A stretch of DNA of 64,000 nt from a bacterium (GTDB lineage Bacteria; JAJRZV01). Both the position numbers and the translations under genes were made by a program. This document shows, piece after piece, positions 12,183-28,394 of the stretch. The stretch spans positions 1,603-65,602 of the forward strand of contig JAJRZV010000050.1 in assembly GCA_024275095.1 (NCBI GenBank), given 5' to 3'. The notes under the pieces are model-generated. The model was not told the DNA's origin and ran no database searches. It saw only the letters and a list, made by a program, of their open reading frames with translations. How positions within the stretch are numbered: the first letter of the stretch is position 1; the number at the start of each line of letters is the position of its first letter.

Positions 12183-13208
12183 ATGAAGGATGTGAAAACC
12201 CTCGGGCTTGTAGTTCCAGAGATTATTAAAGTTGAAAAAAACAGTTATTCTCGAACCTATGGAAAATTTTATGCAGAGCCCCTTGAAAGGGGATTCGGTA
12301 CCACTATCGGTAATGCTTTGCGTCGTATATTGCTCTCATACATAAAAGGTGCAGCGGTTACTGCGGTGAAAATTGAAGGTGCTGAACACGAGTTTACCTC
12401 TCTGCCCGGAGTATACGAGGATGTGACGGACATCATTCTCAACATCAAGCAAATTCGTATTGCTTACGACCGTGATGAAGAAAAAGAAATGAGGCTGGAT
12501 ATGTCGGGAGAGGGAGAGGTGCTTGCTGGTGATATTCAACATGATGATAGCATCAGAATTGTAAATCCAGACCTTCACATTGCCACACTTGAAAAAGATG
12601 GAAAACTTAACATTACCATGAAGGTAAAGACAGGCCGTGGGTTCATGCCCGCAGAAAGAAACAAAAGTGATGACCTTCCAGTGGGATACATTGCTATTGA
12701 CTCGATTTTTTCTCCCGTAACCAAGGCTGTATTCCGTGTGGAAAACATGATGTATGCCGGGCGAGCTGACTATGACCGTTTGATACTGGAGATATGGACA
12801 GACGGAACCGTAACCCCTGAAAGTGCGCTCAGACAGGCGAAGGATATTCTTCTGCGGCATGTGGACGTGTTTGAAAATATTGAATCAATGGAAGAGGATG
12901 AAGGAGATCTCTACGAAAAGCAGCGTCGCGAGAAGGTGAGGCGCTTGATGAGCCACCTGCTCAAACCGGTGAGCGAACTGGAACTTTCTGTGCGCTCGGC
13001 CAATTGCTTGAAGTCGGCAGGAATCAAGCAGATTAAAGACCTGGTTGTCAAGTCTGAATACGATTTGCTTAAAACCCCTAATTTCGGCCGTAAATCCCTC
13101 AGCGAGATTAAGGATGTTCTTTCGACCATGGGTTTGAGGCTCGGAATGACCCAGGAAGAAGTGGATATTATTCTCAAAGAGGGTGAGCGGCTGGAAATAA
13201 AGGAGTAG
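12183..13208 (+). CDS. rpoA: DNA-directed RNA polymerase alpha subunit
   Basis: 341 aa with N-terminal assembly domain and alpha-CTD (...[24 protein letters not shown]...). Confidence 0.95.
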
Positions 13209-13749: not shown

Positions 13750-14853
13750 GGATTTGACTAGACTTTTTGTACACTTTTGAAAAGTACCTCCGGGATCTGG
13801 TCTCATGTATGAAAGCCTCCCATGATGTCAAGAAATAATTCGTTCAAGGTTTTTCTTAAGGGACTGTTATCACCTCTATATTTTGTTTCGGTGAATCACT
13901 TTTTGGCTCGTATGCCATATTCACGGCAATACATGTATGCGTCCTTAGAAGGACAAGAGCATTTTATGCGGGGGAGCTTCCCAATCATTTATCGGGTTAA
14001 AAAACGAGTTTCTAAAGGCAAATAAAAGTGCATTTTTTACCCATCAAGACCTCGGGCATGCTCCGCCGGAGAAATTATATCTCATAAACCTTTCAATATC
14101 ATAAGGAGATTTTTCCTTAAGCACGAAGAAGGAAGCTTTAACAAGTTCATGAGCGAGTGCGAGGGAGGCTTTTGCGTATTCTTTGGCTTTTTCATATTTT
14201 CATAAGAGTTTTTTGCATTGGCCCGGAAAAAAGCGAAACATTTTCTCTGAAAAAATATGAGAGACCTTCTTCTCATGTGTACATCTCCTGGATAGATGTT
14301 TTACATCCTGTCACACCTGAGTCAAAGCTTATTTTCCCTGTTCACTGTGAAGAGATTTAGTGAGATAAATCTCAGCCGGAGTTATGAGCCCAGATGATGA
14401 GCAGGGTTTTCGCCGATTAAACCCTGGAGAACCGTTCCCGGTGATACTGAATACCTCCTCGCTGCTTCTTCCACCGATAGCTTTCTTTTTAAAACACAAG
14501 CACGATCTCAAGTTTCTGCTCCAACGGTATTTCTGCTCTCCTGCCCGTGGCTCACTTCCTCCTTTGAAACTGTTTTTATTTTATCCCTGGCGGGCCATGA
14601 ACCTGCTCCGAAAGTCTCACTTATCAAATGTTCCGGTTTAGGTGAGGCAATACATCCGGCAATGTGTGAGTGGCGTGGGTCGTTGAGCATCCGGGAATGA
14701 ACGGAAACCATTGTAAGGCAGATGCCCAGTTGTAAGTAGTGACGGAGGATTTTTTGTACTTTTTCGAAAAACAGGAAGAAGTGACGCATTGCGTTGTCTC
14801 CTGAGGTTTTTATCTGGTAGTATAAAAACAACTTTTTGCGCGGGGGGTAACTT

Positions 14854-16086
14854 ATGGTTGTGGTGAGTGCAGAAGAGGCAATAGAAGAAATACGCAAAGG
14901 TAATATGGTGATTCTTGTTGACGACGAGGACCGTGAAAATGAAGGTGACCTCTGCATTGCTGCAGAAAAGGTGACACCTGAGGTTATAAATTTTATGGCC
15001 AAGTATGGCCGAGGTCTTATCTGCTTGGCCCTTACGGAAGAACGTTGCCGGGAGCTGGACCTCAAGCCAATGGTTACGGATAACACTGCTCCATTTCAGA
15101 CAGCCTTTACTGTATCGATAGATGCAAGGGAAGGCACCACCACCGGAATTTCCGCTTATGATCGCGCTCTCACCATTAAAAAAGCAGTGGATCCGAATGC
15201 CAGACCTTCGGATTTTGTACGGCCGGGTCACGTTTTTCCACTTATGGCCAGGAAAGGGGGTGTGCTGGTTCGGGCAGGTCAGACGGAAGGGTCTGTAGAT
15301 CTCGCAAGGCTTGCTGGCCTCACTCCCGCTGCGGTGATATGCGAGATTATGAAAGATGACGGCACCATGGCTCGCATGCCGGATCTGGAGAAATTTGCAA
15401 AAGGGCACGGGCTGAAGATTGTTACTATTGAAGAGATTATTCGCTATCGTCTGAAAACGGAAAAATTTGTACGTCGCGTGGTGGTATCGCGACTTCCCAC
15501 CTCAGATTACGGAGAATTCACCGTGATTGCGTATGAAAACGACATTGATACTTCCGTACACGTGGCCTTGGTGAAGGGAGAGGTTCGTGAAGATGAGCCG
15601 GTACTTGTACGCGTTCATTCTGAATGTCTTACCGGGGATGTTTTCGGCTCGTCGCGTTGTGATTGCGGCCCTCAACTGCGCAGGGCTATGGAACTTATCG
15701 CGGAGGAAGGTAAGGGTGTTCTTCTTTACCTTCGCCAGGAAGGCAGAGGCATCGGACTTGTAAACAAACTCAAGGCCTATAATCTCCAGGATGAGGGTCT
15801 GGATACAGTGGAGGCTAACGAAAGGCTCGGTTTTCCTCCTGACCTGCGGGATTACGGTATCGGTGCCCAGATTCTCGTGGATGTGGGAGTGAGAAAGATG
15901 AAGCTCATGACCAACAACCCGCGCAAGATCGTGGGACTGGAAGGATATGGGTTGACAGTGGTGGAGCGGGTTCCCTTGGAGGTATGTCCCACGGAAGAGA
16001 ACATGAAGTATATAATTGCAAAGAAGGAGAAACTTGGTCATCTTATAGATATTGAAAGCCTGAAGAAAAAGGCTTCCAAAAAATGA
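14854..16086 (+). CDS. ribBA: bifunctional 3,4-dihydroxy-2-butanone-4-phosphate synthase / GTP cyclohydrolase II
   Basis: 410 aa; DHBP synthase N-half ([14 protein letters not shown]) and GTP cyclohydrolase II C-half ([18 protein letters not shown]). Confidence 0.95.
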
Positions 16087-16602: not shown

Positions 16603-18459
16603 TTATGGCGGCGGCATAAACTGGTCGTCAGCAGGATACAGATTGATTCGCAGTGCATACCTTAGAGCTTCATAGCCATCACTCGTGACGATATAGAACC
16701 GCCAGGTGAAGCTGTCTTCGGGAGACGTTTCGTCGCGTATGCGCACCTGTTGCTGGGCAGGATACACGCAGGCAGCAAGGTGCACGGTTGAATGGTCCAT
16801 TATCAGGTACGTGTTCTCACCAAGGGCGATTAATCCGTTCACAAGGGGTATGCATATATGGTCAAAGTCGAAGTTTCCCAGTGGAAACTGTACGAGATTT
16901 TCTTCGAGAAGGGCGGGTGAATATTCTACATAGCTTAGTGAAAAAGGGAAGGTTACGGACACTTCCCGATCGGTACCCTTGTTAACATTTAGTGTTACTG
17001 AATAAATATCCTGCTGCGTGGTACATCTTGAAACAGCCAGGGCATAATCGCGACTCGTTGTGACCAGTGAATATACCGGGAAAGAGGACGCAATTTCGAA
17101 TTCACTTTCTTCCAGGCAGTATTTCGGCAGGTCGGGTCTGATGTCCTGGTATGTACTTTCTGAAAACATCGTCGATATTTTTTGTGCCAGTAATTTTGCT
17201 GTTTTTTCAGCTTCTGCAGAGTGATAAAGGCTGTAGTTGACTTCCGTATAGGCAGGATTCCAGCCGGTTGAGTCACTGACTTCGGCCTTGAGCTGGTGCC
17301 GCCAGGCATCCCGGAGCATGTTTTTCCATTCCTCTGATACTGCTGCGCCGCTTGCCTCTGCATATTCCAGTGCCTGTTCGGCCTTCATCAGAGCGCGCCG
17401 ACTTTTCCAGTTCGCCACGCGGACAACATTGTCCATTTCGGTTCCGCCGAAAAGTCCTATGCCACCCATCCAGAGAAAAAGATTGTCTGAATACACCGGT
17501 CGCCAGTCTCCGTCAAAGACCAGAGGGAAAGGTCGTGGTTCAACACCAGCATCCAGAACGGTGTTCACATATTCTGAAATAGTTGCGATGGTATACCCTT
17601 CAGCTTCATAGGCCGATAGGCGTTCCTCGAATTCTTTAAAGTTTTCTTCGCGTGCTTTGAAACCGATAATAAAGTAGGGTGGGATGTCCCCTGTAGCCAG
17701 CAGTTCCCCGTCGTCGTAGTAGGCCCATCTCACTGAATAAGTCGTACCGTTAATTTCAAAGTCCAGGTTTTCAGGAGCTATGATGACGTATACGTTTCCT
17801 CGCTGGTAGAGAGGGTGGATGAAGGTTGTATCAGAAGAATAGTGGTACCTGAAAAGTCCGCGTGGAAAAGCAGCGATCCGGTATCCTTTTTCAGCCATGA
17901 AGTCCAGAGTGCCCAGCCCGAATTGGCCTTCCTGGGTGAAAACCACATCGCTGAAGGGCAAACACAACTCGCGTGAAAGGTCCATATTGAGCTTCCATGA
18001 CCATTCCATGTCTTCCCTTGGGAATGCCAGGTAGAGCTGATCGCTGTAGTGAAAGCTCATGAGCTCCACCTGGCCTCTTTCAACAAGAGTTTCCAGCTTT
18101 TTCAACACCTCGGGGTGACGCTCGGCCATTACTTCCAGCATGTAACCCTGAAGTTCAATGTTGGCTTTCCACCGTGGATGTTTCAGGTAAAAGTCAAGCA
18201 CCGGCTCAAAACTCTCGCGCACGATGAGGTCTTCCATGATTTCATTGGACACGGTATCACCGCCTTCACCGGTAAGTCCTCCTGCAATGTACTGGATGTT
18301 GAAGTGAAATAGAGAAAGTACGAAATGTGTACTGTCCGTTTTTTCAGTGTTGGCTCGAATGCCCCATGTTGCACACTCTTTGTTCGAACATCCCTGCACA
18401 GTAGAAAGGATGACAATGAGAAAATATGCCACTGGTATTGATAAGTTCGTTTTTTTCAT
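16603..18459 (-). CDS. exported (probable lipoprotein) glycoside-hydrolase-like protein of the GH38/GH57-type (beta/alpha)7-barrel family
   Basis: Start placed at internal ATG 18459 (MKKTNLSIPVAYFLIVILSTVQGC = signal peptide plus Cys); downstream FHFNIQYIAGG and RGQVELMSFHYSDQLYLAFP resemble GH57/GH38 N-terminal catalytic blocks. Family assignment from memory only. Confidence 0.5.
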   Translation of the reverse strand: MKKTNLSIPVAYFLIVILSTVQGCSNKECATWGIRANTEKTDSTHFVLSLFHFNIQYIAGGLTGEGGDTVSNEIMEDLIVRESFEPVLDFYLKHPRWKANIELQGYMLEVMAERHPEVLKKLETLVERGQVELMSFHYSDQLYLAFPREDMEWSWKLNMDLSRELCLPFSDVVFTQEGQFGLGTLDFMAEKGYRIAAFPRGLFRYHYSSDTTFIHPLYQRGNVYVIIAPENLDFEINGTTYSVRWAYYDDGELLATGDIPPYFIIGFKAREENFKEFEERLSAYEAEGYTIATISEYVNTVLDAGVEPRPFPLVFDGDWRPVYSDNLFLWMGGIGLFGGTEMDNVVRVANWKSRRALMKAEQALEYAEASGAAVSEEWKNMLRDAWRHQLKAEVSDSTGWNPAYTEVNYSLYHSAEAEKTAKLLAQKISTMFSESTYQDIRPDLPKYCLEESEFEIASSFPVYSLVTTSRDYALAVSRCTTQQDIYSVTLNVNKGTDREVSVTFPFSLSYVEYSPALLEENLVQFPLGNFDFDHICIPLVNGLIALGENTYLIMDHSTVHLAACVYPAQQQVRIRDETSPEDSFTWRFYIVTSDGYEALRYALRINLYPADDQFMPPP

Positions 18460-18523
18460 GTTTAAGCATTTTAACAAGAAAGGATGTTTCCATGAAGAAG
18501 TGATGGTGTATAGCTCAGGGTCT

Positions 18524-19714
18524 TTAAAGTCCGTACTCCCTGAGAAATGACTGAATGATGAGAACGGCGGATGCGCTGTGCACGACCCGTTTTCGACGCG
18601 TGCGCCTGGTGTGGCTGAGTAAAAGAGATGCATCCTTGGAAGTTAAAGATTCGTCAAAAGGAAATACTTTTATCTCTTTTCCAAGACGTCCCTGCAGGCG
18701 CTTTATAAATCGTAAATGTAGTGTTTCCTGCGAGGTATCATTAAATTCCCTGTTGTAGGGTACACCCACTACTACTGTGCAGGTGCGCTTTACCTTAGCA
18801 AGAGAAGCAATTTTTGTTAAAGCCTCTTTCCTGCTGTGCACGTCTATCGGGTTGAGAGGATACGGAGGAAGCTCCGGTTTTTCCTGAAGGGCGATGCCGA
18901 TGTGTCGTTCACCGAGATCCACAGCCATCACGGGAAAACGGAAAAAGTATCCCCAGTGAAAGGGAGGATAATCAGTGTGTGAGTGAATAATGCGTTCGCC
19001 TGCAGTGATGATATTGGTACTCAGGTAATGTGCTGTGAAGAATGCAGGAAGAGACGGCAGTCTCAGACGGGGGGTGAGACGGAGTTCTTCAACAAGTTTT
19101 AGAAGATGCTCTTCATCCTTTTGTGCTACGGCTCCTCCGTCACTGATTCCGGCTGAAGCAAGCAGCTCTTTGTACAGCTCTTCTGATATAACCCGCCTCC
19201 ACGACGAAAACGGCATTGAAAGTGTTACCTCAGCAGATGTAAAGGCTTTGAGAAGAGAGATTATGTGTCCGGTAGAAGGAATGTTCGAGGGAGGTGGTTC
19301 AAATACGAACTCCTGCACGGATTCCAGCAAGCTCCTCGCATGTTTCACAAGCTGTTGAAGGTGGGAGACTTTTATGGAGGAAAGAATTTTTATGCTGAGT
19401 GAGATAGGTACCGGATTGAGGATGCTTGCTGCAGAAAGGATTTTTTTGCAAGTTTCCATATCAGTGAGGGGTATGCCAAGTGATACGGAAGATATGTACT
19501 GCTTGATTGCACCAGGGATTTTGAAGCATTCAGTGTGTATTTGCAGAACAGGAAGCAGTCCATTTTTCAGAATGCCTTGTGCTTGCTCGAGAAGCGTATG
19601 CCCGGGAGTCGTGGAGCTTGTTTTCGGAAGTTTTTTGTTTGTAGCCCCCGGGATTACAGGGGCTGTGTGTAATTGATACGTGAAAAAACGTTTCGATGAC
19701 ATCTCAATCGCCAT
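18524..19714 (-). CDS. ruvX: Holliday-junction resolvase-like RuvX/YqgF domain (C-terminal 134 aa) preceded in frame by an uncharacterised ~260-aa N-terminal region
   Basis: C-terminal part MAVDLGERHIGIALQE...VVVGVPYN...HSASAVLIIQSFL matches YqgF/RuvX; the same frame stays open 786 nt upstream with no stop and no SD before the internal ATG at 18928. Confidence 0.6.
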   Translation of the reverse strand: MAIEMSSKRFFTYQLHTAPVIPGATNKKLPKTSSTTPGHTLLEQAQGILKNGLLPVLQIHTECFKIPGAIKQYISSVSLGIPLTDMETCKKILSAASILNPVPISLSIKILSSIKVSHLQQLVKHARSLLESVQEFVFEPPPSNIPSTGHIISLLKAFTSAEVTLSMPFSSWRRVISEELYKELLASAGISDGGAVAQKDEEHLLKLVEELRLTPRLRLPSLPAFFTAHYLSTNIITAGERIIHSHTDYPPFHWGYFFRFPVMAVDLGERHIGIALQEKPELPPYPLNPIDVHSRKEALTKIASLAKVKRTCTVVVGVPYNREFNDTSQETLHLRFIKRLQGRLGKEIKVFPFDESLTSKDASLLLSHTRRTRRKRVVHSASAVLIIQSFLREYGL

Positions 19715-19817
19715 TTTAACGTAGATTTAAGGGTTATTATACAGACTCTTCTCTGGCGAGGTCGTAAACCTTTCGAAAAAAATAAGGTTTGAAAATTACC
19801 GACTTTTCGTACAGAAC

Positions 19818-20900
19818 TTAAATAATTCCTTCTTCTTCCAGTGCCTCACGTACCTTTTTTTTGGTGTCTGCGAGACGCTCTTCCATATAACGGGTTACCG
19901 TGTCCATGATGGTTGGATACATGAGTAATATTTCCTTAAACCGCTCTTTTTCGATTTTCATAAGTTCGGATTTTTTCAATGCTGTAACTGTCGCTGTGGT
20001 TTTGTCATCGGTAAGAAGAGCTATTTCGCCGAAGAAATCTCCTTCTCTGAGTTCAGCCAGCCTTACTCGTTTGCCTCCACCGATGCCTCTCGATACAACA
20101 AATGCTCCGCTCCGGATCACGTAAAAAGCTTCTCCTGGAGTTCCCTCAATGATTACATGGTCTCCTTTTTCTACCTTCACCAGTACGAATCGCTTGGCAA
20201 TTTCCTGAAGGTCGTCTTCGTTCAGATCGCGGAACAGGGGGATGTTTGAAAGTGTCGGTAGAAATACATGGTGGAAATAGAGATTTTCAACGTATTTTTG
20301 AACCTGCGGATATTTGCGGGATATTTCTTTAAGGTGTTTTTCACTGACTTCCAGGACTTCGCAATCGCTTTCCGCCATCACAGAAGCGGGCAGGGGTGTT
20401 TTGGCAAAGAAGGAGTACTGGCCTATAAAGGACCCTGGTCCCAGCGTTTTGAGCACGCGCACCTCACCATTTTCGCTTTTTTCCACCCGCGCCTCTCCAG
20501 AGGTCAGGAGATAAATCGCCTTTGCCCTTTCTCCCTGTTCAAGTATCACATCCCCTGCGGGAAAAACATGCCTGTTGAGATGGCGAAGAACATCAATAAA
20601 TTCTTCGTTAGAAAGTGAAGAGAAGAACAGGATTTTGGGTATCTTGAGAGGTTTCTTTTTCGGTGTTTTTTCTTCTGCTGGCTCTTTTGCTTCCTCTGCA
20701 CCTTCCGCCGTAATTTCTTCTACGGCTGGTTCTGGCGGGCTTCCGGTGAGCATTTTTATGAGGTCTTCAACGCGGGGATCATCCGGCTTGAGGTCATAAA
20801 GAATCTTGCTGAGTGAAAGTGCCTGGGGAACGAAACCCTTGTTGTAATACGCAAAGGCAACATCCAGATATTTTTCAAAGGCCTCTTCCACTTTTTTCAA
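19818..20900 (-). CDS. protein with two cyclic-nucleotide-binding (CAP-like) domains, TPR-like N-terminus; ORF begins at TTG immediately after an in-frame TAA
   Basis: 360 aa; two cNMP-binding beta-barrel segments (…FGEIALLTDDKTTATVTA… and …FIGQYSFFAKTPLPASVMA…); no HTH. Confidence 0.7.
   Translation of the reverse strand: MKKVEEAFEKYLDVAFAYYNKGFVPQALSLSKILYDLKPDDPRVEDLIKMLTGSPPEPAVEEITAEGAEEAKEPAEEKTPKKKPLKIPKILFFSSLSNEEFIDVLRHLNRHVFPAGDVILEQGERAKAIYLLTSGEARVEKSENGEVRVLKTLGPGSFIGQYSFFAKTPLPASVMAESDCEVLEVSEKHLKEISRKYPQVQKYVENLYFHHVFLPTLSNIPLFRDLNEDDLQEIAKRFVLVKVEKGDHVIIEGTPGEAFYVIRSGAFVVSRGIGGGKRVRLAELREGDFFGEIALLTDDKTTATVTALKKSELMKIEKERFKEILLMYPTIMDTVTRYMEERLADTKKKVREALEEEGII

Positions 20901-25223: not shown

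Positions 25224-28394
<3,171 letters not shown>

Follow-up and report, generated by a model that had tools for sequence, protein, structure and literature searches.

A RuvX/YqgF-family gene with an open N-terminal extension, very likely translated at least in its domain-proximal part, in an apparently little-sampled bacterium

RuvX/YqgF proteins are nearly universal, often essential and consist of a single domain. Characterised members process the 5' leader of pre-16S rRNA or cleave branched DNA, and their cellular role is debated, with rRNA maturation, Holliday-junction resolution and transcription all under discussion. The family (PF03652, TIGR00250), which includes E. coli YqgF, B. subtilis YrrK and M. 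tuberculosis RuvX, usually has alaS and mltG as genomic neighbours. YqgF contains three conserved carboxylates, i.e. an Asp in strand β1, an Asp/Glu in strand β5 and an Asp in the C-terminal helix (PMC3985635). Larger architectures are found in Tex/Spt6, which belong to the YqgF family, and in the RuvC-like mitochondrial TEFM, where the RNase H-fold domain lies beside helix-hairpin-helix (HhH) modules (PMC3105396, PMC3985635); in TEFM the extra module sits N-terminal to the RNase H fold (PMC3105396).

The ruvX gene described here deviates from the single-domain scheme. Whereas RuvX/YqgF proteins have a size of ~130-160 aa, its product would comprise 230-396 aa, the relatives listed in our searches ranging from 127 to 250 aa. 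The gene lies in a window, i.e. the whole stretch of DNA that was analysed, of 64,000 nucleotides, and the features of the locus are as follows.

18524..19714, minus strand: open reading frame of the extended RuvX, a single frame of 396 codons (396 aa)
18524..18931, minus strand: RuvX/YqgF RNase H-fold domain and stop codon, aa 262-396 of the long ORF
18932..19318, minus strand: proximal half of the extension, coding-like, aa 133-261, beginning with GTG 19318
19319..19714, minus strand: distal half of the open frame, aa 1-132, stop-free, coding status doubtful
19715..19817, minus strand: 103-nt spacer from the cNMP-binding gene to the first ATG, containing TGTATAAT, without a Shine-Dalgarno sequence
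19818-20900, minus strand: gene for a TPR-like protein with a double cNMP-binding region, upstream neighbour of the ruvX ORF
18459 (likely start), minus strand: GH57-like lipoprotein gene, neighbour of the ruvX ORF

The gene order on the minus strand is thus cNMP-binding gene, ruvX ORF, GH57-like gene, followed by a convergent ribBA-ribH pair and the end of a ribosomal-protein operon; alaS and mltG are not adjacent to the ruvX ORF at this locus. SecY, RpoA, PyrG, RpoN, CarA and RibBA, all encoded in the window, match their profiles from end to end, and as these conserved genes are intact the assembly looks sound rather than error-ridden.

The C-terminal part had been assigned to YqgF/RuvX in a first-pass annotation of the sequence, and this assignment is borne out by PF03652 (aa 262-392, E 8.6e-24, 84.8 bits vs. 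a cutoff of 29.2) and by the NCBIfam equivalog TIGR00250 (54.3 vs. a cutoff of 43.25), both of which exceed their curated cutoffs. The C-terminal 135 aa align with the family end to end and keep the invariant D, G, G, G-x-P and D-E. An exhaustive phmmer search of 1.84 billion representatives yielded 1310 matches, the best 150 of which cover only aa ~251-396, have lengths of 127-250 aa and, apart from the protein itself, are at most 39% identical to the target. When the domain is aligned with the 149 best relatives (the best rows of these 1310 matches), D266, G268, G273, G317, P319, D354, E355 and T358 fit invariant or near-invariant columns. The third catalytic position, located in the C-terminal helix, is His379 (codon at 18578-18580), whereas the family mostly has Asp there (Asp 136, His 12 and Tyr 1 among the 149 homologues). 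A His is also present at this position in P0002, the closest homologue. Comparison of these sequences suggests that His379 is a recurrent minority state and not a loss confined to the target protein, the putative active-site pattern being D266, D354/E355 and H379. P0002 itself (39% identity) follows an unrelated gene on a high-GC contig of 1 kb and is not a relative; short RuvX sequences elsewhere, with identities of 39% or less, are likewise too distant to count as close relatives.

The gene differs from the family in the region ahead of this domain. Depending on the start used, 133-265 residues precede the catalytic Asp, in contrast to a median of 7, and never more than 68, among the best 149 RuvX relatives, whose start coincides with V262/M263 and whose homology to the target begins at aa 258-263. 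From ATG 18928 the frame can be followed upstream for 786 nt (18929-19714) without a stop, just as the first-pass annotation had claimed, and runs on the minus strand, which had been left unstated there; the in-frame stop preceding it, a TAA, has its first base at 19729, 15 nt ahead of the first ATG (19714). The probability of 262 codons without a stop is 8e-6 to 6e-5 and that of 132 codons 3e-3 to 9e-3. Moreover, the remaining five frames contain 6-18 stops each over the extension and all have negative coding scores, in line with the earlier statement that there is no convincing alternative ORF. In this genome, ORF length alone is weak evidence for a gene, the 64-kb window containing 64 stop-free stretches of at least 100 codons, and up to 321, that lie off-frame or antisense to real genes. 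As long spurious open frames are this common, ORF length overstates the size of the extension. Examples of antisense open frames are 26716-27675 (minus strand) opposite pyrG and 14638-15408 (minus strand) opposite ribBA.

Coding potential was scored with a three-periodic second-order Markov model, calibrated on leave-one-out windows of real genes (mean 0.172, sd 0.086) and on spurious open windows (mean -0.084, sd 0.083, maximum 0.100); stop-free spurious ORFs served as null, an off-frame null being skewed by stop codons. The RuvX domain has a gene-like score of 0.155. With a score of 0.150, a value that 0 of 66 spurious open windows attain and that corresponds to the 32nd percentile of real-gene windows, aa 133-262 look like real coding sequence. 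The score of aa 1-132 is -0.076, which is equalled or exceeded by 48% of the spurious windows and as low in only 2.4% of the real ones, i.e. by the calibrated score this part is indistinguishable from spurious open frames. The cumulative score reaches its minimum at codon 129, adjoining GTG133, the start chosen by NCBI, and then climbs, steeply from about codon 181; the segment aa 133-262 adds +19.4 bits, aa 1-132 sum to -11.5 bits, and the coding signal is unbroken across the junction between extension and RuvX. In a codon-phase test, aa 133-262 reach p=0.0005 and aa 1-132 p=0.02. Thus, calibrated score, cumulative score and codon-phase test taken together identify the proximal half of the extension as coding and leave the distal half doubtful. 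The N-terminal region of ~260 aa proposed in the first pass consequently holds for aa 133-262, which are gene-like, but is doubtful for aa 1-132, which score like spurious frames. Given this sequence evidence, an N-terminally extended RuvX is very likely made.

Where translation would begin can be narrowed down to the following candidates.

ATG 19714, codon 1: no Shine-Dalgarno sequence, TGTATAAT ~22 nt upstream, least structured initiation region
GTG 19318, codon 133: GAGGAG 13 nt upstream, start in the NCBI protein P0001
ATG 19216, codon 167: GAGGT 9-10 nt upstream
GTG 18931 / ATG 18928, codons 262 / 263: no Shine-Dalgarno sequence, canonical-length starts

Judged by their sequence context, none of these starts is compelling. 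No upstream start has a well-spaced Shine-Dalgarno sequence. For ATG 18928 the first-pass annotation had noted the lack of such a site, and none is indeed present in the 22 nt before it ('atactttttccgttttcccgtg'), although the genome uses them: in the same window rpoA, rplQ, ribH, fabG and adk are all preceded by GGAGG-type sites. By inspection of the sequence, TGTATAAT is an extended -10-like motif, and a consensus scan gave no full -35/-10 promoter. The region from -30 to +30 around ATG 19714 has a folding energy of -6.7 kcal/mol and is thus the least structured among the candidate starts. All starts except 18931/18928 give an extended RuvX of 230-396 aa, with 396 aa for the complete ORF, 264 aa for P0001, the NCBI model, and 230 aa if translation begins at ATG167; P0001 corresponds to aa 133-396 and already carries 130 extra residues.

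The extension is without detectable relatives. Pfam searches at E<=10 with aa 1-262, aa 1-132, aa 133-262 and aa 165-225 gave no family, the NCBIfam, PHROGs and PADLOC profiles did not match the extension, PDB sequences gave nothing below E 1.5, and Rfam had no match to the 5' part at E<=1, all of which agrees with the initial impression that the extension contains no recognisable motif. A homology search with residues 1-262 had been suggested as a check, and billion-scale protein searches return only the organism's own protein: a word-indexed search of 5.8 billion protein clusters finds P0001 only, whether queried with the whole ORF or with aa 1-262 (E<=10), and in the exhaustive phmmer search of the 1.84 billion representatives the extension likewise matches nothing but the organism's own protein. 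Neither GTDB species genomes nor JGI metagenomes yielded a locus when pattern-scanned with the ORF, and exact look-ups of P0001 and RpoA returned no contig on record. The sampling of the lineage has to be considered here. RpoA (rpoA, 12183-13208) has a single relative with 76% identity, on a 3-kb Logan contig (L004, SRR21619490), all other matches among billions of proteins being 57% identical or less and the named ones deriving mostly from Nitrospirota; the GTDB and JGI pattern scans gave no close RpoA either, and a genome scan with RpoA for syntenic relatives only matches of 44-45%. By these sequence comparisons the source organism appears to be almost unsampled, and thus an orphan extension is to be expected, be it functional or not.

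As stated in the first pass, the extension is rich in Ser, Leu and Pro, all three exceeding the window averages of 5.8, 9.5 and 5.5%, respectively, in both halves (Ser 12.1/10.0%, Leu 13.6/11.5%, Pro 6.8/8.5% for aa 1-132/133-262). The distal half, aa 1-132, has a basic pI of 9.8 and abundant Ser, Leu, Ile and Lys, and aa 133-262 are mildly acidic (pI 6.1); no transmembrane segments were detected in the extension. AlphaFold models from the single sequence have low confidence (pLDDT 41-45), with the best values (55-74) at aa 40-140. Two runs agree on alternating β-strand and helix elements over aa 37-165, which cross the GTG133 start, and after aa 148 the extension is predicted to be mostly helical. 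Structural matches of the model are generic β/α folds, as expected at low confidence. A motif in the extension, 'LLASAGISDGGAVAQ', loosely resembles an HhH, a resemblance that is without statistical support. An RNA element behind the 5' part was rejected, Rfam being empty at E<=1, the fold z-score being -1.5 and repeats being absent.

Based on these findings we consider it on balance probable that the gene encodes a functional RuvX with a D/DE/H site, fused to at least 100-130 lineage-specific, largely helical residues that may act as an adaptor. A single gene would thereby give rise to an RNase H-fold nuclease of the RuvX/YqgF family with an N-terminal extension that has no detectable relatives, and as there is no stop between extension and nuclease domain, any ribosome starting upstream would make the fusion protein. 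Very likely, the translated part of the extension comprises the 100-130 residues beside the domain, from which we infer GTG 19318 or ATG 19216 as the true start codon, and the further 132 codons to ATG 19714 would either be part of the protein or a 5' region that is open by chance. Rather than being a second catalytic unit, the extension might bring the nuclease to a substrate, the ribosome or a partner protein. A more far-reaching version, in which the extension, be it all 262 aa or just the proximal half, forms a folded domain restricted to this lineage that retargets or regulates RuvX, e.g. as a ribosome or DNA tether, is plausible but somewhat doubtful; if true, it would represent a new RuvX architecture in a nearly unsampled deep branch.

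The most serious competitor, albeit a rather unlikely one and at the same time a special case of the extended RuvX, is translation of all 396 aa from ATG 19714, with codons 1-132 being a real yet atypical part of a larger, two-part N-terminal domain that is perhaps young or fast-evolving, basic and possibly RNA-binding. It is supported by the position of the first ATG just 15 nt past the upstream stop, by TGTATAAT 22 nt upstream of it and by a start region that is less structured than those of the other candidates, as well as by the low chance of 132 open codons (3e-3 to 9e-3), the codon-phase signal of aa 1-132 (p=0.02) and the predicted elements at aa 37-165 that have the highest pLDDT (55-74) and cross GTG133. 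However, a score of -0.076 is what spurious open frames have on average, only 2.4% of real windows lie as low, aa 1-132 sum to -11.5 bits, and the structural matches are of the generic β/α type. Moreover, in a window of ~55 genes it would not be very surprising to meet one extension this long by chance, and other long gene-free spacers exist, e.g. the 1.1 kb at 13750-14853.

Quite unlikely, in our view, is a RuvX of canonical length starting at GTG 18931/ATG 18928, with a separate orphan gene or remnant upstream whose stop was lost by recent mutation or assembly error, i.e. an accidental or artefactual fusion. The 149 nearest RuvX proteins are all short, homology sets in at aa 258-263 where the junction 'cccGTGATGgct' provides a pair of neighbouring start codons right at the canonical position, and the extension has no homologue, be it fused or free. 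Yet 262 codons are free of stops, the other frames are non-coding and thus provide no frameshift partner, and ATG 18928 lacks a Shine-Dalgarno sequence in a genome that uses them; the other genes of the window are intact, which speaks against an accident of assembly, and even after the loss of a stop the organism would make the fusion protein. The near-equal length of the three segments (~130 + 130 + 134 aa) and two weak local similarities, 'ISSVSLGIPLTD' and 'VTLSMPF' against the RuvX strand 'VVVGVPY', might suggest that the extension is built from the RuvX fold itself, in one or two degenerate copies arranged in tandem and forming an intramolecular pseudo-dimer or pseudo-trimer. This idea is highly improbable and effectively refuted at the sequence level: the hhalign probability is 0.2% and the BLASTP E value 0.56, and an HMM built from 150 RuvX sequences gives -1.4 bits for aa 1-132 and -2.5 bits for aa 133-262, scores that shuffled copies equal or exceed in 31 and 22% of cases, respectively.

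If a RuvX with at least 100-130 additional residues is made, Tex/Spt6 and TEFM may be regarded by analogy as precedents for resolvase-like domains that work beside nucleic-acid-binding modules. Like these proteins, the target would have an RNase H-fold, resolvase-like domain joined to extra, largely helical sequence; in contrast to them, its extension gives no match to Tex_N, HhH or S1 profiles even at E<=10, and its nuclease domain matches the RuvX model itself. Membership in the Tex/Spt6/TEFM group was therefore rejected, as no HhH, Tex_N or S1 module is found by Pfam at E<=10. In general, a natural RuvX with a built-in module could reveal the partner or substrate to which the nuclease must be brought. 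Here this value is limited, as the extension has neither relatives nor a confident fold and half of it is perhaps non-coding, and the practical lesson is rather one of annotation, i.e. that the length of an open frame alone inflates the estimate of an extension.

Several further features of the region were noted. Codons 17-26 of the long ORF contain a GC-rich hairpin at ~19640-19665 on the minus strand (AGCCCC, 8-nt loop, GGGGCT); an A-rich run follows on the mRNA strand, so that the hairpin is not a terminator in either orientation. The upstream neighbour (19818-20900, minus strand) has a TPR-like N-terminus and two cNMP-binding domains, with no recognisable output domain. Its interpretation as part of a defence system was dropped, as the PADLOC Pycsar effector and cyclase models match via the cNMP domain only. 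The longest form of the GH57-like ORF (16603-18633, minus strand) overlaps the 3' end of ruvX by 110 nt; translation more likely begins at 18459, with a lipoprotein-type start (MKKTNLS...LSTVQGC). The GH57 Pfam match is weak (E 2.2e-5) and spans only ~80 of 676 residues. Between rplQ and ribBA, the 1.1 kb at 13750-14853 contain no ORF of more than 85 aa and no Rfam match at E<=1, and an FMN riboswitch is not recognisable upstream of the riboflavin genes. Ribosomal protein L17 (13213-13749, plus strand) comprises 178 aa, of which ~60 form a Lys/Glu-rich C-terminal tail; its match to the NCBIfam 'L17 sunset domain variant' is only partial and stays below the cutoff.
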